Shown here piece after piece: positions 1 to 8,371 of a DNA stretch of 64,000 nt; position 1 is the first letter of the stretch; each line of letters opens with the position of its first letter. Location of the stretch: positions 1,376,001 through 1,440,000 of the forward strand of contig CP147780.1 in assembly GCA_037310415.1 (NCBI GenBank), read 5' to 3'. Both the position numbers and the translations under genes were made by a program. The stretch is from Candidatus Atabeyarchaeum deiterrae. Its GTDB lineage: Archaea; Asgardarchaeota; Atabeyarchaeia; Atabeyarchaeales; Atabeyarchaeaceae. Below the pieces are notes generated by a model. The model did not search any database. It saw only the letters and a program-made list of their open reading frames with translations, and was not told where the DNA came from.

Positions 1-253
1 TTTTCATCTCTTTTCTATACATCGCATCTTACTCGGGTTCATGCAATCAGAGTCTATGGATCTCACGTCATCCAGTGGCTCTCGTTTACTTCGAAAACAA
101 GATTGTTGATTGCGTAATTCCCCGCACGATGGGTATATTCCTGTTCCGCGTCTTCTAACTATTTTGAGGAATCCATGGTATATAAGGGTTAGACTGTTCC
201 TTCAGTAAAAAACGCTTTCTCCCTCCCCCCTTTTTGCAAGAATCGCAATCTAT

Positions 254-1111
254 TCATGCGAGGTCCTTAATGCTCCTCGGGTTTACCTTCACGCCTTCAG
301 GCTCAACCCTCTTCTTTCTGAGTTTGTGAATCTCTTCCTTCGCTGACTTGAGTCCGAGCTTGAAGGCCTCCTCGAAACCGTAGAGCGCCTTCCTGTCTTG
401 ATTGATGTTTAGGTACGCCATCGCGATATTGTACCATCCGAGGGCATTCTTGCGATCCAATGAGAGGACTGCTTCATAACAGACTATTTCTCTACCATGA
501 TCGTTTCTTCTCCCATATTCGACTCCGAGATTCATCCATGCCAAGGTGTAGCTAGGTTCTATTTCCAGCGCTTTTCTGTAGCGCTCAATCTCCTTGTCGT
601 GGTTTCCCTCCATTCCGTTAGTTACGCCCAGATTGTACCAAGCTTCGAAGAAGTTCTCATCTAAGGAGAGCGCTTTCTCGTAGGACTTTCTTGCGTTTTC
701 GTATTGACCGTTCTCGCCATAGGCGCCTCCCAAGGCGAACCACGCAACATGGTTCTCGGGATCTGCTTGAGTTGCTGTTTCGAAACATTTGATCTGTTCC
801 TCGCTGTTTCCCTTCAATCCGTGTGTTTCACCAAGTTCAAGCCACGCGGTTGAGTTTTTGGAATTTATGTTTAGAACTCTCTTGAAACACTCTATTGCTC
901 GATCGAGTTTCTTGTCCTCCTTGTAGGCTTCACCTAAATAGAACCACGCATCAGAATTCGCAGGCTCTAGCTCAGCAGCTTTCTTGAATAACTTCACAGC
1001 TTTCCCAAAATCCTCTCTATCCAGGCAAAGAAATCCCCCTCTCATGGAACTAGAAAAAGACTCAGACACAGCATTACGCCTCCAAGAAAGCAAATATTCA
1101 GACATATACAT
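254..1111 (-). CDS. Tetratricopeptide repeat (TPR) protein
   Basis: About 6-7 tandem 34-aa repeats with AWxxLG...A...A..L.P pattern. True start may be downstream of 1111. Confidence 0.9.
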   Translation of the reverse strand: MYMSEYLLSWRRNAVSESFSSSMRGGFLCLDREDFGKAVKLFKKAAELEPANSDAWFYLGEAYKEDKKLDRAIECFKRVLNINSKNSTAWLELGETHGLKGNSEEQIKCFETATQADPENHVAWFALGGAYGENGQYENARKSYEKALSLDENFFEAWYNLGVTNGMEGNHDKEIERYRKALEIEPSYTLAWMNLGVEYGRRNDHGREIVCYEAVLSLDRKNALGWYNIAMAYLNINQDRKALYGFEEAFKLGLKSAKEEIHKLRKKRVEPEGVKVNPRSIKDLA

Positions 1112-1267
1112 TGCAGATATTTATCTCACACCCTTCCGTGGAGCATTCAATCAGAAGGGGGTTTAGCAAGAAACCCAATGCGCTTCAGCGGTTGGATGAA
1201 TTGCGCGCCAGCCTTCAGGCTGGACAGTTCCAAGCTTCATGCGGCGATTCTTCATCTAAGAGCTTTT

Positions 1268-1650
1268 ATGCCAAGAGGTTATCAAAGGGCAGCCACAACT
1301 ATTCACCTTATGAACTACCACTTCGTGCGGAGCCCCAGATACATGAGAAAACTATTGATGGGGAGAATCGCCCAAAGGCTGGGCAGTTAATATACGAGAA
1401 GGCTAAACAACTGGAGTGTAAAGTCATCCAGCTGAGAATCGTGCCCGACCACGTGCACCTCTTCACAGAGAGCAACCCGAAGTTATCTCCAAACAGAGTC
1501 ATAGGGGAAATAAAGGGCTACACATCACGGGTTCCAGGGCGGGAGTTCCGGGAGTTGCTAAAGATGCCGACTCTGTGGACGAGAAGCTACTTGGTCAGTA
1601 CAACAGGAAACGTAAGCTCGAGAATAATAGAACCGTATACTGAAGTCTAG
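1268..1650 (+). pseudogene. tnpA: IS200-type Y1 (HUH) transposase, frameshifted
   Basis: ATG 1268 gives MPRGYQR..NYHFVRSPRY, which stops at 1390. The HUH motif DHVHLF, KGYTSR and LWTRSY lie in another frame after ~1381. The YxxxQ motif is cut by TAG (YTEV*). Confidence 0.85.
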
Positions 1651-1666
1651 AAAAGGACTTGAAACC

Positions 1667-2995
1667 ATGCAAGTCGTCAAGACCGTTAAGATACCTCTGC
1701 ACTACTCAACGACAAAACGTAAGCTGAGTATTCTAGACAAGCTGACGGCTAGGTTGACTTACGGAGTAACACTGTGGTCACGGCTGATTGAGGAACATGG
1801 CGTGGAAGATAGGAGCAGGCTAAGAAGTCGCGCCTTGGAGGCTCGAGTGAAGGAGAGGACTGGACTGAGCGCGGGCTTCGTTCAGTGCTGTGGGGACACA
1901 GCTCTTTGGATGTGGCGAAGCTATGGGGAGCTGCACAGAACCTGGGCGAAAACAGTTAAGATGGCTGAGAGCAACAAGGAGCAAGAATGGCTCAAGAAGC
2001 TCCAAAGAAGAGAACCCAAGAAACCTCTGAGCAACGGTCTTAGACACAAGATCCCAATCTGGTTCGACTATCGTGTAGGCAAGCTGGAAAAGGCTAGGAG
2101 AATCAAGATGGCGACCCATGTCATCCGCGTAGCTACATTGAAGAGGGGTGAATGGGTGACAATTCCACTCAACCCGGCTCCGTGTCACATCCAGCTGCTT
2201 GGGCAAGGGACAGCCAAAAGCTTCCAAATCGTGAAGAAAGGCTCCAAGTACAGTGTTCACATTAAGATCGAGCATAGGGTGCTGGATGTGCCTGTTGCAG
2301 GCGTTCTGGGAGTGGATCTGGGTGTGAGGCGCCACGCGGCAACCGTGTTGCTCAGTGGCGAGAAGCCTCCTAAGCTCACCCCGCGATCGTTCCTGACTAT
2401 CCGTGACGGGGAGAAGAAGAACCGTCTGGACAGGTTGAATAGGCTTGTGTCAGAGCTGCAACAAGCGGAGAAGTATGAGACCTTGAGACGGTTAAGGCAT
2501 AAGAGGAAACAAGTCGCAGTGTACTTTGACCGCTTGTCCGCTAAGACGCTGGCTGACATGTGTGGGGGATGTCTCCTCGTTGTTGGCCACCCGAAGGGTG
2601 TCAAGTACAGTAACTTCAAAGGTAACGGCAAGAAGAAGCTAAGGAAAGTGCTGACGCGTTGGAGCTATGCCCGCTTGATACGGTTCATCGTTGAGGAGAG
2701 AGCGGAGAGAGGACTGTCGACGGCTGTTGTTGATGAACGGTGGACATCCAAGACATGCTGGAAATGTCGCTCAAGACATACTCTTCGCATGAATCAGTCA
2801 ACCCTCTTCTGCCGTCATTGTGGCATGACTTTCAACGCTGACTACAACGGTGCGTTGAACATCGGCCTGCCTTATTTGGCTAAAGCCGCGGGCCGAAGGG
2901 CTGCAGATGAGCCAGCCCAAGGAACCGAGGATGACCAGGCAAAAGAAATAGTAGCCTGCAAGCTCGGAAGCCAACACCCTTCAAGGGGTTTGTAG
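1667..2995 (+). CDS. tnpB: TnpB RNA-guided endonuclease with rearranged RuvC-II
   Basis: RuvC-I GVDLG; canonical RuvC-II position VVGHP (no Glu); VDERWTSKTC; zinc finger CWKC/CRHC; RuvC-III NADYNGALNI. Confidence 0.92.
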   Translation: MQVVKTVKIPLHYSTTKRKLSILDKLTARLTYGVTLWSRLIEEHGVEDRSRLRSRALEARVKERTGLSAGFVQCCGDTALWMWRSYGELHRTWAKTVKMAESNKEQEWLKKLQRREPKKPLSNGLRHKIPIWFDYRVGKLEKARRIKMATHVIRVATLKRGEWVTIPLNPAPCHIQLLGQGTAKSFQIVKKGSKYSVHIKIEHRVLDVPVAGVLGVDLGVRRHAATVLLSGEKPPKLTPRSFLTIRDGEKKNRLDRLNRLVSELQQAEKYETLRRLRHKRKQVAVYFDRLSAKTLADMCGGCLLVVGHPKGVKYSNFKGNGKKKLRKVLTRWSYARLIRFIVEERAERGLSTAVVDERWTSKTCWKCRSRHTLRMNQSTLFCRHCGMTFNADYNGALNIGLPYLAKAAGRRAADEPAQGTEDDQAKEIVACKLGSQHPSRGL

Positions 2996-3020
2996 CTCAC
3001 ATTCAGTTAACTAATCTCGC
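2870..3020 (+). ncRNA. Predicted TnpB omega/reRNA scaffold plus flanking guide
   Basis: Hairpin GGGCTG..CAGCCC (~2898-2918) and the right-end hairpin overlap the tnpB 3' end. By analogy to characterised TnpBs the guide would start at 3001 (ATTCAGTTAACTAATC). Boundaries inferred. Confidence 0.55.
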
Positions 3021-3127
3021 TGCGAATCCATAGTATGCTTAAATACCTTTAAGAACAGAATACTGCAAACAGAAGGGTCCCAGCGCTATTGTCTAGTTCT
3101 ACCGAATGAGATAGGAGTTGTCTGAAG

Positions 3128-4141
3128 TTGGTGCATGAAACTGGCGTTTCATATTACGGTTGCACGCAAGCTGACCACGCAAGAGAAGACTTCAAAGAGA
3201 TGGTTGACCACAACTGTAACGCCGTCCAGTTCGCCATAAGTGAGTTTGACTGCCAGCACTGGTGGCCAGCCATGAAGGAGATAACCAAGATCGCGAAAAA
3301 CGAGTTTGGGTTGAGAGTTCACGTCAGCCTGTGGGGATTTGGAAGAGTCTTCGGCGGTGAACCCATCTCAGCGTTTCTTGAAGAACACGCAGATTATCGC
3401 CAAGTCACTTCGGCAAGCGGAAAGCTGCGCCCAGCAGCATGCATCAACACGGAATTCAGAAAATACTACCTAACCTGGGTCAAATCATTCCTGAGAGATC
3501 TCACTTGGGATTACCTTTTCCAAGATGAACCTCACTACGCTGTGCCCACCTCAAGTGAGTGGACATGCCGATGCGAGACATGCCAACAACTCTTCAAGCA
3601 GAAATATGGCTATGAAATGCCCAAAGAGTTGACTGACGACGTTCGCAAATTTAGAGAACAAAACTTGGTTGCACTGCTCGTCGAGGCAGCGCGACTAATC
3701 AAATCCACTGATTCGAGCAAGAAGGTGATTACCTGCCTATTGCCTGGGGGAGGAGAACAGTCCGGAATCGGTGATTGGTCAAGAATCGCTTCAGCACAGG
3801 AGATCGATGTTCTTAGTACTGATCCATATCCGTACGTATTCGGAAAACCGGCAATGCGCCCATACGTGACTGAAATAACAAAGAAAGCCTTGAAGTACTG
3901 CAAAGATTACAGCAAGATGTCACAAATCTGGGTTCAACTGTTTAGTGTCCCCGCTGTCAGGACAGAAGAGGTCAAGGAAACCATTAAGCTAATAGACGAA
4001 CTGGATCTTGATGGAAAGAAGGTCGACAGCATATTTTGCTGGTCCTATAGGGCAACAAAAGGGACAACGATAAGCTGCACTAGGCCAGACTTGGCATGGA
4101 AACTCGTCGGAGAGGCATTCAGAGAAGTTCTTGAGAAATAA
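3128..4141 (+). CDS. Glycoside hydrolase-like TIM-barrel protein (GH42/GHL-like)
   Basis: FQDEPH putative acid/base motif, CRCETC..FKQKYG zinc motif, LSTDPYP. Confidence 0.6.
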   Translation: MVHETGVSYYGCTQADHAREDFKEMVDHNCNAVQFAISEFDCQHWWPAMKEITKIAKNEFGLRVHVSLWGFGRVFGGEPISAFLEEHADYRQVTSASGKLRPAACINTEFRKYYLTWVKSFLRDLTWDYLFQDEPHYAVPTSSEWTCRCETCQQLFKQKYGYEMPKELTDDVRKFREQNLVALLVEAARLIKSTDSSKKVITCLLPGGGEQSGIGDWSRIASAQEIDVLSTDPYPYVFGKPAMRPYVTEITKKALKYCKDYSKMSQIWVQLFSVPAVRTEEVKETIKLIDELDLDGKKVDSIFCWSYRATKGTTISCTRPDLAWKLVGEAFREVLEK

Positions 4142-4298
4142 TGCCACTCCTCTTGGGGATTCTGCGTCTCGACCTTTGAGAAGTTCTCAATCGATTTTCC
4201 GTCCGAGCCTTGCGGTCGCCTAATATTTAAACGGTGACCGAGTCTGATCCATTGTTGAGGAACAGTTCTATCTGTCTCGCCCAAAGGGGGCATACATC

Positions 4299-5120
4299 TT
4301 GATTCGTAACGTGTGGGTAATAGAGAAACTCAGTGGTCGTTGTCTCTTCCATCTCGCCTACGAAAAAGAGCTGAAGGAACCTGACCTGATTTCTGGCTTC
4401 CTATCAGCACTTACCAGTTTCTCAGAGGCTGAGCTCAAAGGAGAAAGGCTTTCAGTAGTCGAAACAGAAGGTAGAAAGTGGGTTTATCGTTATGTTGAAC
4501 CCCTGATATTTGTAGTAACAGGCGCAAAAAAGGATCCTGAATCACATCTAAAAGCTCAAGTGAGCTACTTAGCCAACGTGTTTCTTGACGCGTTTCCGGA
4601 GCTAAAAGCAGAGACTGCGAGAGGTTTCTTTGAAAAGTGGTCGGGGGACAGAAATTACTTTGGTAGACTTGAGCCGCTAGTTGACCAACTCGTAGGGCAA
4701 TGGAGCGAAGTTGATCAAGTGAATAAGGCTGCCAAAGCCCTAGACGTGGTGGAAATCTACCAAAGAATCTTTGACGCCATAATCTCCGATGTGAAGGCAT
4801 GCAATGGTAAGATCTCAACCGAATTTCAATCTGCCGTGAAGGAGTTTGACGACGCGTGCAAAGCGAAGATCACGTACGCGGTTTCGGAGTTCAGCCCGAC
4901 GCTTGACCTCTTAAACATAAATGTCTTCTCAACAGGATACGAAAAGCTGAAAGAAGAACTCGGTTTACTATTGACGAGACTAATGAGAATACTGAAGGAT
5001 CATCTTCCAGCCGGTGAAACTGAGAGAATCATGAAGTCCAAAATAGTCCCGATCATGAAAACCGATTGGAAAAGGATAGACGTGTACAATATTGACCCCG
5101 TTCTGATTTCACTTCTGTAA
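4299..5120 (+). CDS. Longin-like domain protein (N-terminal longin, helical C-terminus)
   Basis: MIRNVWVI..SGRCLF...DLISGFLSALTSFSE is the typical longin beta-beta-alpha start seen in Asgard proteins. Confidence 0.7.
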   Translation: MIRNVWVIEKLSGRCLFHLAYEKELKEPDLISGFLSALTSFSEAELKGERLSVVETEGRKWVYRYVEPLIFVVTGAKKDPESHLKAQVSYLANVFLDAFPELKAETARGFFEKWSGDRNYFGRLEPLVDQLVGQWSEVDQVNKAAKALDVVEIYQRIFDAIISDVKACNGKISTEFQSAVKEFDDACKAKITYAVSEFSPTLDLLNINVFSTGYEKLKEELGLLLTRLMRILKDHLPAGETERIMKSKIVPIMKTDWKRIDVYNIDPVLISLL

Positions 5121-5164
5121 GTGACTCGCTTCTGATCGCTTCGAGCTTATTTCTCTTCCACATC

Positions 5165-6352
5165 CTATTCTAATTCTACCGTTGCAGGGGGCTTAGGGGT
5201 TACGTCATAATAGACGGATCCAACTTTGCCACATTTATCCATGATTCTTTCCGAGATAGTATATAGCTTACTCCAATCAAGCTTAGCCACATTCGCTCTT
5301 GAGAAGTCATCAGTAAGGATAGCCCTAATCACTGCGAGGTATTTTCCATTCTTCGGTTTCTTAGTTACGTTGTACAGACATCTTGTGAACTCCTTCTGTT
5401 TCTCAACAAACTCAACTGGAAAGTCAACCAAGTCATCATGGTCTGGCTCAAAAATCTCTTTTGATCCTAGAAGTGTCACTCTTGAGGCTGACACTTTCAT
5501 GTAGACTCTCTTCTCTTTCCTTAATCCAGCAACTTCACTTCGAGGAATCTTTAGATCAACTTGGTTAGAACCTACGTCCAAGAAGTCTGAGATTCGTTCT
5601 CTTATCCTGTCAATATTGACATCATCGTCATCCTTATTCTCGATTATTGCAGCAAGGCATTGGGTAGGCTTGATGTACTGAAACTCATCCTCAACTATTG
5701 CGTTTGCTTCCCTAGCTTCCTTCAATCTCTCATCGTTGACTCTTCCTACCACTCGAATCAAGAGTCCTGGCGCAGGGAAAGGATTCAAATCTGAGAGTCT
5801 GGGCGGGAGTTCCAGATTCTCAGCAACATTCAAAACTTGCTGCCTGCTCAGAGCACCCAACGGCTCAATCACCTGGAGAGAATGTCTGGTGAACAGTTCT
5901 TTCAATGAAGTTATTGAAGGTTGATCAATTGCAGTGCTATTCTTTGCACTTGTTCCAAAGACCACAAGTTTTGCTTCTTCACCTTCACCAAGTTCCCTGA
6001 GAATTGTATAGAAGGTTTCGTAGAAGGCCTTCCTCTTTTCTATGGCAGTTTCGGCCTGCTCCACACTCTTCATGACTCGTTTCCTGGCGTCGATCACCTT
6101 GAGAGGCAACTTTAGCGGCGCTCTCTTGATAGTCTCTGAAACCGTATCAGCTTCATTCTTCCTCAGGAATCCCGTGTCAACGAAGACGGGGATAACGTTT
6201 GCTCCATTTGTTGCTCGTTGAATGATGGCTGCTGCTACGTTGCTACTAACCCCACCACTACATGCGAGGAGAACCATTTGCCTACCTACAGTGCTTCTGA
6301 CTTCCTGTATCTTGTTTCGCACGAAAGCTCCAGCGTCGAACCTTTCGCTCAA
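5165..6352 (-). CDS. GMP synthase ATP-pyrophosphatase subunit-like protein (divergent)
   Basis: SGGVSS (canonical SGGVDS), VDTGFLRKNE, PFPAPGL, C-terminal YDVTPKPPATVELE. Probable TTG start at 6352. Confidence 0.75.
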   Translation of the reverse strand: MSERFDAGAFVRNKIQEVRSTVGRQMVLLACSGGVSSNVAAAIIQRATNGANVIPVFVDTGFLRKNEADTVSETIKRAPLKLPLKVIDARKRVMKSVEQAETAIEKRKAFYETFYTILRELGEGEEAKLVVFGTSAKNSTAIDQPSITSLKELFTRHSLQVIEPLGALSRQQVLNVAENLELPPRLSDLNPFPAPGLLIRVVGRVNDERLKEAREANAIVEDEFQYIKPTQCLAAIIENKDDDDVNIDRIRERISDFLDVGSNQVDLKIPRSEVAGLRKEKRVYMKVSASRVTLLGSKEIFEPDHDDLVDFPVEFVEKQKEFTRCLYNVTKKPKNGKYLAVIRAILTDDFSRANVAKLDWSKLYTISERIMDKCGKVGSVYYDVTPKPPATVELE

Positions 6353-6625
6353 ATTGCTCGACCTTCCTAAATCAGTCTGAATAAACTGGCAACAATCAAG
6401 TAGTTTCAAAGCGGAACACATATAGTTAAAGATGTGGGTTTGTTGGTAACGTGACTATCGGATTACTTAATTAGTCAAAAAACCAAGCCAAACTTTAAAA
6501 ATTTGGGATACCTACTCAATTAGCGGGTTCTCCATAAACTATCTGCCACTTGAGGACGCAGTTGTTTTGCGCGATTTGATAGATATTAGTCATCTAGAGT
6601 ATAGAATAAAGGTCGGAGAAAAACG

Positions 6626-8371
6626 ATGGGCTCTAGAAAAGTCACAGATATGTTACTCAGGGTTGCTGGAGAGTCAGGAGAAGGCATATTGACAACTGGC
6701 GAACTCCTGACATTTGCTGCAGCAAGACTTGGCCTAAACATATGCAATTTCAGAACGTATCCTGCGGAGGTCACCGGCGGTCAAAGTCTCTACCAAGTAA
6801 GACTCACAACAGAAAAGTTTCTGTCGCCATGGAACTCGACAGACATCCTGATAGTATTCGACGAGGATGCATTCAACTACAACATCAAAAGTTTACACGG
6901 GAAAGGTTCTTTGGTCTACGATCCTGATCTGCACACTCCTCTTCTTGAGAAGAATTCCTCTGCCAGTCTCTACGGACTACCTATGACCAAGATCTCCAAA
7001 GAACAAGTAGGTTTGACAAGAACCAAGAACATGGTTGCTCTCGGAGCGGCGGCAAGCATGATTTCAATCCCGTATGGCAACATCGCAGACCTCATTCAGA
7101 GACGCTTCAAAAGTATGGATAGACAAACGCTTGATAAGAACGTGGAAGCTCTGAAGCTAGGTTACGATCATGCCGAGCAAAACTCTCCTGCAAGATACGA
7201 ATTCCCGAGAGTTAGAGTCTCCCCCACGAAAATATACCTCACTGGTAACACCGCGATCGCACTGGGAGCGCTAAAAGCTGGCTGCAAATTCTATGCAGGT
7301 TACCCTATAACACCATCATCAAGCATCCTGGAGTACCTCTCTCGCGAGTTTCCGAAGTTTGGCGGAATCATGTTTCAGACTGAAGACGAACTCGCTGCAC
7401 TCTCTGCCGCCATTGGAGCATCATTCGGCGGAGTGAAATCAATGACGGCAACATCTGGGCCAGGTTTCTCACTCATGGCTGAAACGCTCGACCTAGCATC
7501 CATGGCCGAGATACCTGTCGTGATAGTTGACGTTCAAAGGGCTGGTCCAAGCACAGGCATGCCGACGAAAACCGAGCAAGGCGATCTAAATGCGGCTTTG
7601 TATCAAGGTCATGGTGACGCGCCCAGAATTGTCCTTGCGCCAGCGGATGTTGAAGATTGCTTCCACTTGACTATCAAAGCATTCAATTTATCCGAGAGAT
7701 GCCAGATGCCCGCAATCATACTTTCGGAGCAGTCGCTATCGGACCGAGCCGAGATGATTGAGAAACCAGATCTGTCGAAGATCAAGGTAGAAGACAGGAT
7801 GAAACCCAACTACCAAGAGATAGCAAAGACTGGCGAATATAAGAGATACAAAATAACAGAAAATGGAGTCTCACCTATGTCTACGCCCGGCGACAAATAT
7901 GGCATATACGTATCAGAAAGCCTTGAACGCGAAGAAAACGCGAAGTTCAGCTATGAACCCGAAGCGCATCAAATAATGATGGAGAAGAGGTTCCGGAAAC
8001 TAAGGATTGCCGAAGATGAACCAAATATGACTAGATCATTCTCGATAGGCAAGGAAAAAGCCGATCTCGGGGTGATTAGCTTCGGACCCTCTGAGGACGC
8101 AGTCATAGAAGCCGTAACCAAAGCCAACAAAGAAGGGAAGAAGGTTTCGTCTCTGCACATTCTTATGCTTTCACCCTTACCAATCAAACAGATCAAACCC
8201 TATCTCGAACGAGTCAACAAAGTCATTGTTGCTGAACTAAATCACACCGGCCAACTCTCATCCCTACTCGCTAAAACACTCTTGCTCGATTCTACTCCTT
8301 TGCGGAAGACAACTGGGCTACCCTTCACGACTGAAGAGATCTTCAACAAAATAAAGGAGGTAGCCCCATGA
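6626..8371 (+). CDS. korA: 2-oxoacid:ferredoxin oxidoreductase alpha subunit (gamma-alpha fusion)
   Basis: GESGEG gamma domain, YPITP, TATSGPG, QRAGPSTGMPT. Confidence 0.92.
   Translation: MGSRKVTDMLLRVAGESGEGILTTGELLTFAAARLGLNICNFRTYPAEVTGGQSLYQVRLTTEKFLSPWNSTDILIVFDEDAFNYNIKSLHGKGSLVYDPDLHTPLLEKNSSASLYGLPMTKISKEQVGLTRTKNMVALGAAASMISIPYGNIADLIQRRFKSMDRQTLDKNVEALKLGYDHAEQNSPARYEFPRVRVSPTKIYLTGNTAIALGALKAGCKFYAGYPITPSSSILEYLSREFPKFGGIMFQTEDELAALSAAIGASFGGVKSMTATSGPGFSLMAETLDLASMAEIPVVIVDVQRAGPSTGMPTKTEQGDLNAALYQGHGDAPRIVLAPADVEDCFHLTIKAFNLSERCQMPAIILSEQSLSDRAEMIEKPDLSKIKVEDRMKPNYQEIAKTGEYKRYKITENGVSPMSTPGDKYGIYVSESLEREENAKFSYEPEAHQIMMEKRFRKLRIAEDEPNMTRSFSIGKEKADLGVISFGPSEDAVIEAVTKANKEGKKVSSLHILMLSPLPIKQIKPYLERVNKVIVAELNHTGQLSSLLAKTLLLDSTPLRKTTGLPFTTEEIFNKIKEVAP

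Follow-up and report, generated by a model that had tools for sequence, protein, structure and literature searches.

The tnpB gene described here very probably belongs to a copy of an IS200/IS605 element whose TnpB protein falls within the described Ealt + D-Phi-G class and outside the Fanzor/pro-Fanzor lineage. The element, of the IS200/IS605 type, is 1.85 kb long and covers about positions 1155–3000 of the window, by which the whole 64,000-nucleotide stretch of analyzed DNA is meant. It consists of a left-end (LE) hairpin, a Y1 tnpA, tnpB, an omegaRNA, and a right end (RE). The relocation of the RuvC-II glutamate in the TnpB protein is real, yet it is an already described and mostly archaeal variant of TnpB. 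The host is an Asgard archaeon, as the preliminary description had supposed; it is Atabeyarchaeia-like, and its nearest named relative is Atabeyarchaeia-1 (CP147779.1). The coordinates of all features are collected in Table 1.

Table 1. Features of the element and of its tnpB gene (positions in the window)
Feature	Position	Strand	Remarks
Left-flank tetranucleotide TCAG, candidate target site/TAM	1151-1154	+	immediately 5' of LE
Left end (LE), subterminal hairpins	1155-1267	+	DNA homology to relatives begins about 1153
tnpA (Y1/HUH transposase) pseudogene	1268-1650	+	1-nt deletion between 1382 and 1383
tnpB	1667-2995	+	intact ORF, 442 aa; WED-REC-RuvC-ZnF architecture; 1329 nt without stop or frameshift
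RuvC-I Asp217	2315-2317	+	codon GAT; motif V-D-L-G (D-Phi-G, not DPG); invariant in 185 relatives
Gly307 at canonical RuvC-II Glu position, end of beta4	2585-2587	+	codons read directly
Glu357, predicted alternative catalytic Glu	2735-2737	+	directly after beta5; six residues between it and C364
C4 zinc finger C364, C367, C382, C385 of TNB domain	2756-2821	+	profile and codons
RuvC-III Asp392	2840-2842	+	motif N-A-D-Y-N (NADYN); start of helix 391-413
omegaRNA (reRNA) scaffold, predicted	2862-3000	+	four main helices; inside tnpB codons ~399-442 plus 5 nt
Right end (RE), …TAG CTCAC	2996-3000	+	homology to all copies ends at 3000; 5 nt past stop
Predicted omegaRNA guide portion, flank-derived, ATTCAGTTAACTAATCTCGC	3001-3020	+	position predicted from IS200/605 biology

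Catalytic Residues of the TnpB Protein

The product of tnpB was compared with two domain profiles. A score of 51.5 bits was obtained with the TNB-domain profile Pfam PF07282 (Cas12f1-like TNB), above its cut-off of 26.3. The NCBIfam model guided_TnpB (NF040570) gave 87.9 bits (E 8e-25), which is under the cut-off of 100; this score marks a divergent subfamily, the cut-off of the model being a threshold for naming and not a test of fold. The preliminary description had read LLVVGHP at the RuvC-II Glu position, with a Glu displaced into VDERWTS, and had found RuvC-I (VDLG) and RuvC-III (NAD) intact. These readings are confirmed by the codons and by alignments. The residues G307-H308-P309 are encoded at 2585–2593, inside LLVVGHP, and D356-E357 at 2732–2737, inside VVDERWTSKTC, which places E357 50 residues downstream of G307. 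In alignments with canonical TnpBs and Cas12f, the RuvC-II Glu is matched by G307, and the Pro of the usual V-D-P-x-x-T-S motif by E357. The spacing of D217, E357, and D392 is 140/35 residues.

These positions are strongly conserved among relatives of the protein. D217, G307, P309, E357, D392, and the four Cys residues are invariant in 45 close relatives, with identity down to 47%, and the D217/E357/D392 triad is conserved at 90–100% in wider sets of 132–185 relatives. Of 185 full-length relatives, 175 have G and 8 have E at column 307; at column 357, 175 have E, 6 have P, and 2 have A. None of the eight relatives with E307 has E357, and the G307/E357 form and the canonical E...DP form co-vary without exception, a pattern that also covers about 60 bacterial canonical TnpBs. 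The aligned sequences thus indicate that the pairing of G307 with E357 is no chance pattern. The RuvC-I motif of the tnpB product and of all 185 relatives is D-[L/F/V/I/R/Q]-G; 174 of the relatives have L at position 218, and none has Pro. The 33 TnpBs recovered from viral contigs are all canonical (E...P), at an identity of 42% or less over short segments. Within the samples taken, Ealt characterizes the archaeal TnpBs, and every relative recovered from bacteria or viruses has the canonical form. The dN/dS of tnpB is 0.15–0.19 (codons 1–395, against three relatives), and the gene is under purifying selection.

An AF2 model of the tnpB product was built from 132 sequences, with a pLDDT of 90.8 and a pTM of 0.82. 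It supersedes an earlier model from 45 sequences, in which the pLDDT was 73 and fell below 50 over the RuvC-I strand. Strand beta1 spans residues 212–218, with D217 near its end, the strand at 302–308 has G307 at its end, and beta5 spans 352–356. In the secondary-structure topology of the model, G307 closes beta4, E357 follows beta5, and D392 lies at the N-terminus of a helix; the same RuvC topology (beta4/beta5/helix) is described for rearranged TnpBs (PMC10691335). The model and a Foldseek search show a WED-REC-RuvC-ZnF fold like that of solved TnpB and Cas12f structures. The protein begins straight at its first beta-strand. Residues 415–442 are disordered in the model.

Alternatively, the missing canonical RuvC-II Glu could mean that the nuclease is dead and that the TnpB, exapted as a TldR-like or other regulatory protein, serves as a DNA-binding protein or repressor guided by RNA, and the single full copy in the genome, with its broken transposase, is consistent with such a function. 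This explanation is very unlikely. The compensating Glu, the two Asp residues, and the zinc finger are all invariant among the close relatives, the co-variation of the compensating Glu with loss of the canonical one is perfect, and the gene is full-length with no C-terminal truncation. Moreover, tnpB is part of a bounded insertion sequence with LE, RE, and tnpA whose site is empty in sister genomes, and it is not fixed beside a host operon. Published enzymes of the same arrangement cut DNA, and an E-to-A substitution kills them. TldR-like proteins, which the preliminary description had named as a possible outcome, are recognized by lost catalytic residues or a truncated RuvC domain and by a fixed host context; tnpB was checked for these and displays none of them.

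Structure and Decay of the Element

The left ends of 11 copies were aligned. The tetranucleotide 5' of LE is TTAG in 8 of the 11, CTAG in L007, TCAG in the present copy, and TGGG in L008, the left end of which is a degenerate remnant. The 11 copies share no other sequence similarity upstream of the conserved LE. The LE core at 1162–1231 is kept even in copies from Bathyarchaeia and Hadarchaeota that are without tnpA. As single-stranded DNA, LE folds with −16.9 kcal/mol (z = −2.1), and paired changes appear in its alignment (CCAATG/GGTTGG here versus CCCACG/CGTGGG in others). At the other end, every copy terminates in TCAC. In IS608, the corresponding tetranucleotides are TTAC 5' of LE and TCAA at the RE end. 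By analogy with IS608 and ISDra2, the TTAG-like tetranucleotide would be the target site and TAM.

The element shares with ISDra2 and IS608 (PDB 8H1J/8EXA) the order of LE hairpin, Y1 tnpA, tnpB, and RE, the presence of one tetranucleotide 5' of LE and a different one at the RE end (TTAG/TCAC in this element), and an omegaRNA that overlaps the 3' end of tnpB. It differs from them in the relocated catalytic Glu, in the location of the whole conserved RNA scaffold inside the ORF, and in ending 5 nt past the stop codon.

The omegaRNA was characterized by comparative folding. In the RNAalifold consensus, 97% of cells are paired, versus 30–46% when the pairing is slid, and 11 of 38 pairs are compensatory. 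Over 26 copies, a set which took in Hadarchaeota copies left out of model building, 96.7% of cells are paired versus 28–47% when slid, and the number of compensatory pairs is 22 of 35. The single-sequence fold yields the same helices (z = −2.2), and this copy reaches 159.7 bits with the omegaRNA model, near the best copies. The dS of tnpB collapses solely over the omegaRNA stretch. These results point to a structured omegaRNA that occupies the 3' end of tnpB and abuts RE. No Rfam family matches positions 1000–3300 at E ≤ 1. Allowing ≤3 mismatches, the predicted guide 20-mer matches nowhere else in the genome, and a genome search for second targets of the two guides at the same threshold returned none.

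The deletion in tnpA leads to a premature TAA at 1388–1390, and the remainder of the gene continues in the −1 frame up to 1650. The downstream frame scores 78.6 bits with PF01797 and 83.8 bits with NF033573 and matches only from profile position 17; the N-terminal part, MPRGYQ..MNYHFV, is in a different frame from the remainder. Three tnpA homologues read AGGCTGGAGCA where the present copy reads AGGCTGG-GCA. A programmed frameshift was rejected as the explanation: no slippery motif is present at the site, CTG GGC AGT TAA, and the three homologues have one extra A. The 1-nt gap may be a residual assembly error. The pseudogene retains the coding for the HUH (PDHVHL) and Tyr (RSY) motifs, and an intact orthologue of 131 aa is paired with tnpB in L007.

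The element is flanked by a gene for a TPR protein and by an unannotated ORF of 337 aa. In the sister genomes G012 and G023, the site is empty: the distance between these two genes is about 180 bp, as against 2016 bp here. The insertion is shown by this size difference, the intergenic DNA of G012 and G023 being too diverged from the flanks of the element for an alignment at the nucleotide level. The genome holds one full copy of the element and one 452-bp 3' fragment, and the broken tnpA is the only Y1 transposase gene found there; the element is therefore probably immobile now, with tnpB still intact. Position 2991 is T in this copy and G in all others; the substitution changes a conserved final Trp to Leu and, by replacing G, leaves one position of the terminal CCAAC/GTTGG hairpin mismatched. 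The copy thus shows early decay in its tnpA frameshift, in TCAG for TTAG, and in the G-to-T hairpin mismatch. A paper on mobile genetic elements of Atabeyarchaeia lists five IS-like elements and does not mention TnpB (PMC11529989).

With these lesions, the copy could be a decaying, non-functional relic of the family assigned here, in which tnpB is open only through the recency of the decay. The broken tnpA in a genome with no other Y1 transposase, the TCAG flank, the altered terminal hairpin and final Trp, and the truncation of the second genomic copy to a fragment all favor this explanation, which is nevertheless judged unlikely. The open frame of tnpB is unbroken and all invariant family residues are retained, the pairwise dN/dS takes in the gene's own branch of the lineage, and the omegaRNA score is close to that of the best copies. 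TnpB genes also commonly outlive transposases. Non-autonomous elements with tnpB only are reported to be the commoner form (Altae-Tran et al. 2023, PMC10691335).

Relation to Fanzor and Other Known Systems

That a displaced Glu is known elsewhere and is catalytically active, as stated in the preliminary description, holds: the arrangement is published as Ealt, TnpB2, or RIIr, and TvTnpB and ApmFz cut DNA (PMC10530073). The Ealt + D-Phi-G TnpBs (Yoon et al. 2023, PMC10711439) agree with the tnpB product in having Gly for the RuvC-II Glu, an alternative Glu about 45–50 residues downstream and just before the zinc finger (as in TnpB2 and RIIr), and a RuvC-I motif of D-hydrophobic-G, here D-L-G. 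TvTnpB, the TnpB2 of Thermoplasma volcanium (Jiang et al. 2023, PMC10530073), is likewise archaeal and associated with an IS605-type Y1 TnpA; activity, a TAM, and the absence of collateral cleavage are shown for TvTnpB. Two major clades, with eight large branches, are reported to carry a rearranged RuvC-II, and several RIIr branches are reported to be almost confined to archaea (Altae-Tran et al. 2023, PMC10691335).

The nearest solved structures, both by profile and by fold, are those of Cas12f (AsCas12f 8J12, OsCas12f 9NZQ, and SpCas12f1 9I8Y), which are of similar size. In the Foldseek search with the AF2 model, the Cas12f matches have TM values of 0.56–0.59 and E values of 1e-20 to 1e-16, with AsCas12f at TM 0.59 and E 3e-20. 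The TM values are 0.46–0.54 for the TnpBs of ISFba1 and ISDra2 and 0.48 for ApmFanzor2, at rank 22. A sequence-profile search of the PDB matched Cas12f (E 1e-15 to 1e-12) and TnpB, with ISDra2 TnpB weak at E 1.4e-5, and returned no Fanzor at E ≤ 1; Fanzor was also not among the matches when residues 205–366 were searched alone. Cas12f retains the canonical RuvC-II Glu, whereas the tnpB product does not and is transposon-borne. No CRISPR repeat array was found within positions 1–8000 of the window and no cas gene near tnpB.

The closest likeness to Fanzor is in the active site. The triad of ApmFanzor2 is D324/E467/D501, with the Glu shifted by 50 residues (PMC11832414); its spacing (ApmFz2, PDB 9B0L) is 143/34 versus 140/35 here, and the shift is the same in both proteins. 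E467 of ApmFz2 is confirmed structurally and by mutation, and E357, judged by residue spacing, occupies the equivalent place. Fanzor2 has DPG where the tnpB product has DLG. Fanzor2 and pro-Fanzor proteins are found with an IS607 serine recombinase or in eukaryotic transposons, whereas the present element has a Y1 TnpA. An N-terminal extension and an NLS are present in Fanzor2 and absent from the tnpB product.

Relatives of the TnpB protein occur sporadically in Asgard archaea, in 6 of the 301 genomes and 3 of the 70 genera sampled, and close relatives are found in Bathyarchaeia and Hadarchaeota. The identity to Thermoplasmatota and other distant archaeal members is at most about 26–28%.

The preliminary description had proposed that an enzyme of this kind in an Asgard host bears on the origin of Fanzors. 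Taken to its conclusion, the Asgard TnpB would be a close relative or the source of the eukaryotic Fanzors, and the displaced Glu would have been passed on by descent through the archaeal ancestor of eukaryotes. [quoted passage not shown] A descent of this kind is nonetheless extremely improbable, and the proposed bearing on Fanzor origins is not upheld. The Fanzor/pro-Fanzor lineage is defined by Ealt together with a DPG RuvC-I motif and an association with IS607, with no link to IS200/605, and the published source of Fanzor is a cyanobacterial IS607 clade (PMC10711439). The tnpB product has DLG, none of its 185 relatives has the Pro, and the linkage is to Y1 of the IS200/605 type and not to IS607. 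The distribution in Asgard archaea is patchy, and Bathyarchaeia and Hadarchaeota, which share the clade, harbor the family just as readily. The multiple branches with a rearranged RuvC-II and the missing N-terminal extension and NLS likewise argue against it, and solved Fanzors are not among the nearest sequence or fold neighbors, the Cas12f structures being nearer than Fanzor2. The non-Fanzor placement is based on signature motifs, transposase type, the rankings in the PDB profile and fold searches, and published work.

A deeper connection is conceivable, since two Ealt/Ecan changes are enough for the 162-row tree, which contains no Fanzor. The relocated Glu could have arisen just once for both the DPG pro-Fanzor/Fanzor clade and the archaeal, Y1-linked Ealt + D-Phi-G TnpBs, to which the present element belongs. 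This is considered highly unlikely. If it were true, the Fanzor-type active site would first have arisen in archaea and not in cyanobacteria.

Predicted Activity and Significance

The assignment to the Ealt + D-Phi-G class suggests how the system would operate. The 3' part of the tnpB transcript would fold as the omegaRNA scaffold, with the flank from 3001 as the guide, and would be bound by TnpB. The complex would recognize a TTAG-like TAM adjoining a match to the guide, that is, the donor joint that excision leaves empty. The D217/E357/D392 triad would then cut the DNA at this joint, and recombination would afterward restore the element. In this scheme, the catalytic role of E357, the identity of the TAM and of the guide, and homing are inferred, and the motifs with their co-variation, the ends of the element, the empty sites, the covariation of the RNA, the purifying selection, and the spread among taxa are observed. 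Activity of the tnpB product as a nuclease is plausible from the intact triad, from the dN/dS, and by analogy with the published rearranged TnpBs that cut DNA. Its use as an editing tool, which had also been suggested, is possible and would be unremarkable for a TnpB of 442 aa.

The result is mainly a correction: a relocated RuvC-II Glu in an Asgard genome says, by itself, nothing about the origin of Fanzors or of eukaryotes. The locus is a fully delimited small system, with a 442-aa protein, a scaffold of roughly 140 nt supported by covariation, a predicted TTAG-like TAM, and a defined guide start. It adds one more compact nuclease candidate to a class reported to be without collateral ssDNA cleavage. 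The tnpB gene is also a clear case in which the disordered C-terminal tail of a protein is the translation of the protein's own guide-RNA scaffold.

Active site of the TnpB protein

The ORF at 1667–2995 (+) is intact and encodes a TnpB of 442 aa. This protein scores 51.5 bits against Pfam PF07282 (Cas12f1-like TNB; cut-off 26.3) and 87.9 bits against NCBIfam guided_TnpB, below the model cut-off of 100. The motifs named for this ORF in the preliminary description (VDLG, LLVVGHP, VDERWTS, and NAD) were all located by reading the codons, at the positions given there. The V-D-E-R-W-T-S segment aligns onto the V-D-P-x-x-T-S of solved Cas12f and TnpB chains.

Active-site residues and modelled secondary structure of the window TnpB
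Feature	Residues	Motif or residue carried	Basis
RuvC-I	D217	V-D-L-G	codons
Gly at canonical Glu position	G307-H308-P309	LLVVGHP	codons
Relocated Glu	D356-E357	VVDERWTSKTC	codons
Zinc-finger Cys	364, 367, 382, 385		codons
Asp of NAD motif	D392	NADYN	codons
beta1	212–218	D217	132-sequence model
beta4	302–308	G307	132-sequence model
beta5	352–356	E357 immediately after	132-sequence model
Zinc ribbon	372–390		132-sequence model
Helix	391–413	D392 at its start	132-sequence model
Disordered tail	415–442		132-sequence model

The first structure model (45 sequences) was poor across RuvC-I. The model obtained from 132 sequences has a pLDDT of 90.8 and a pTM of 0.82. Rearranged TnpBs carry the Glu on beta5 in place of beta4, as in RuvX (PMC10691335), and the modelled order of strands and helix is the same as this published topology. 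The residues D217, E357, and D392 are separated by 140 and 35 residues, and E357 lies 50 residues beyond G307. For ApmFanzor2 the triad is D324/E467/D501 (spacing of 143 and 34), and its Glu, also "shifted 50 residues", is an essential Mg2+ ligand (PMC11832414). The modelled topology and the residue spacing are consistent with a possible placement of E357 beside both Asp residues.

A word-indexed search provided 245 relatives at E ≤ 1e-5 among 8000 candidates scored, and a search run exhaustively over 50%-identity representatives provided 1870 at E ≤ 1e-3. None of 45 relatives (47–86% identity) departs from the window TnpB at D217, G307, P309, E357, D392, or any of the four Cys. Among 185 full-length relatives, G and E appear at column 307 in 175 and 8, respectively, and E, P, and A at column 357 in 175, 6, and 2, respectively, with zero mixing of the G307/E357 and E/P-A states. 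All archaeal matches recovered are G...E (Asgard, Bathyarchaeia, Hadarchaeota, Alkanophaga, Methanoxibalbensis, Thermoprotei, Brockarchaeota, Thermoplasmatota, and Nitrososphaerota), whereas the viral TnpBs (33/33, E...P/A/S) and all bacterial genome matches recovered are canonical; this split was seen in pattern-selected samples, is biased by the search patterns, and is a lead rather than a census. In a FastTree tree of 162 rows (alignment of 397 columns, with both trait columns, 2/397, left in), two changes between the relocated (Ealt) and canonical (Ecan) states suffice versus 54 in shuffles; the second of these two is due to one long-branch row.

The mobile element and its embedded omegaRNA

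Comparison of the DNA with its relatives delimits a mobile element at the tnpB locus. Homology to the Atabeyarchaeia-1 copy (L007) extends from 1153 to 3001, and that to a tnpA-less copy covers 1667–3000 and a tnpA remnant. Every copy closes on ...TAG CTCAC or ...ATCAC, with divergence beginning right after, and the element end is therefore placed at 3000, 5 bases beyond the stop codon. The left end (LE) folds into hairpins, and paired substitutions are visible between copies. Of 11 copies, 8 have TTAG as the tetranucleotide 5' of the conserved LE; L007 has CTAG, and the window copy has TCAG. By analogy with IS608 and ISDra2, this tetranucleotide is probably the target site, which would make it the likely TAM. 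The distance from a TPR gene to a 337-aa gene is ~180 bp in two sister genomes versus 2016 bp in the window, and the short spacers are empty sites.

The 337-aa ORF (3128–4141, +), directly 3' of the element, is without a Pfam match at E ≤ 0.01 and is kept beside the same TPR gene in Atabeyarchaeia-1 (74% DNA identity). The left flank (1146–1154) ends ...TTCAATCAG, the right flank (3001–3006) starts ATTCAG, and the pentamer TTCAG/ATCAG is present at both junctions. This recurrence is probably chance, because IS200/605 elements make no target duplication.

A Y1/HUH transposase gene lies upstream of tnpB (PF01797, 78.6 bits; NF033573, 83.8 bits) and is the only Y1 transposase match across the 2.76-Mb genome. 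Its N-terminal 40 codons lie in a different frame. Three homologues have one extra A between 1382 and 1383, which indicates that the window tnpA has lost 1 nt there and stops early, at a TAA (1388–1390). L007 carries an intact orthologue of 131 aa.

The final ~155 nt of tnpB retain ~70% DNA identity even where the proteins of the copies are only ~50% identical. Several helices were predicted by RNAalifold from 14 copies between 2862 and 2997, with 97% of cells paired versus 30–46% when the partners were slid and compensatory changes in 11 of 38 pairs. With 26 copies, in an alignment fitted to the covariance model and hence leaning toward structure, the values are 96.7% versus 28–47% and 22 of 35 pairs. 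The single-sequence fold of the window RNA agrees with the consensus helices. Over codons 396–442, dS falls to 0.09–0.26 versus 0.55–0.83 elsewhere and dN/dS rises, as expected if selection sees the RNA and not the disordered protein tail. No family for the scaffold was found in Rfam. The covariance model of 15 copies detects Hadarchaeota copies absent from its building set at 73–95 bits and gives weak matches at the same relative position in distant archaeal TnpBs; the scaffold architecture may be common to the archaeal Ealt group.

Matches to the scaffold model R1, which was built from Asgard and Bathyarchaeia copies, appear at L030:1683–1818, L074:2216–2349, and L033:2150–2288 (E 1e-6 to 4e-5). 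These are the 3' ends of TnpB genes only ~26–28% identical (Alkanophaga, Thermoplasmatota, and Thermoprotei). The predicted guide (3001 onward) has no other match in its own genome, as the standard IS200/605 "homing" model predicts.

Related copies in Atabeyarchaeia

A solo 452-bp 3' fragment of the element is found elsewhere in the same genome (G000:C1:2044974–2045440, –; L002:1487–1943, also L089). It is homologous to window 2547–2998 only, at 91% identity, and comprises tnpB codons ~291–441 and the right end (RE), without the LE and the remaining gene. Its omegaRNA scores 164.6 bits on R1 versus 159.7 for that of the window and keeps the consensus terminal hairpin; the fragment could be the source of a second guide in trans. 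A 454-aa TnpB-like ORF lies ~2.4 kb away (TNB match 2042383–2042571).

A miniature derivative is found in Atabeyarchaeia-1 (L027:1585–1915; CP147779.1 near 1.962 Mb), in which 24 nt from the start of the LE are fused straight to the last ~308 nt (omegaRNA and RE). Its identity to the window element is 94%, versus only 80–83% for the full-length copy in that genome, which points to a separate invasion or to recent exchange between these two Atabeyarchaeia lineages.

Nine PF07282 matches and about 8 TnpB-like ORFs occur in the window's genome, yet only the one (broken) Y1 transposase. Among these ORFs, L003 (445 aa) encodes another, highly divergent TnpB of the Ealt type (YVGDL ... VPERGTS), and three others (L004–L006) are canonical (E ... 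P/S).

Activity and relation to Fanzors

Activity of this copy is favored by an unbroken ORF with all invariant family residues, a dN/dS of 0.15–0.19 over codons 1–395 versus three relatives, and a well-kept RNA scaffold (159.7 bits). DNA is cut by TvTnpB and ApmFz, enzymes of the same arrangement (PMC10530073), in agreement with the earlier statement that displaced-Glu enzymes are catalytically active. Against activity are the broken tnpA, the off-consensus left flank TCAG, the single full copy in the genome, and T2991 (G in every other copy), which mismatches the terminal hairpin and turns the final Trp of TnpB into Leu.

The Asgard host is confirmed. The nearest named relative (76% identity) comes from "Promethearchaeati archaeon SRVP18_Atabeyarchaeia-1" (complete chromosome), of the same family as the window's genome, a single contig of 2,756,679 bp. 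The proposed bearing on Fanzor origins is not supported. Ealt proteins fall into two clades, D-Phi-G and DPG (Yoon et al., PMC10711439), and Fanzors lie within the DPG clade only, which is cyanobacterial and IS607-linked, with the absence of an IS200/605 connection stressed (PMC10711439). In contrast, the window TnpB is Y1-linked and has DLG at RuvC-I, where Pro appears in 0 of 185 relatives. Relatives at ≥47% identity come from Bathyarchaeia, Hadarchaeota, and one other Asgard MAG. In the 162-row tree, which was made without Fanzor sequences, the closest neighbors of the window TnpB are Asgard LC30 and Atabeyarchaeia-1, followed by a Bathyarchaeota copy and next by Hadarchaeota and Bathyarchaeia. 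Relatives at E ≤ 1e-40 occur in 6 of 301 genomes sampled from the phylum (3 of 70 genera), and in three of these six the identity is only ~35%. A profile search of PDB sequences at E ≤ 1 listed Cas12f and TnpB and no Fanzor. The best fold match of the model is AsCas12f (TM 0.59, E 3e-20); ApmFanzor2 ranks 22 (TM 0.48), level with ISDra2 TnpB, and SpuFanzor1 is outside the top 50.

The displaced-Glu observation stands and its interpretation is supported in part, the Fanzor-origin reading being unsupported. The published literature already covers this rearrangement together with its activity and distribution (PMC10530073, PMC10691335, PMC10711439, and PMC11832414). TnpB is not discussed in the study of Atabeyarchaeia mobile elements, where five IS-like transposons are listed (PMC11529989). 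The locus is an ordinary IS200/IS605 element showing slight decay; its Ealt-type TnpB is intact, and the omegaRNA embedded in it is well defined.
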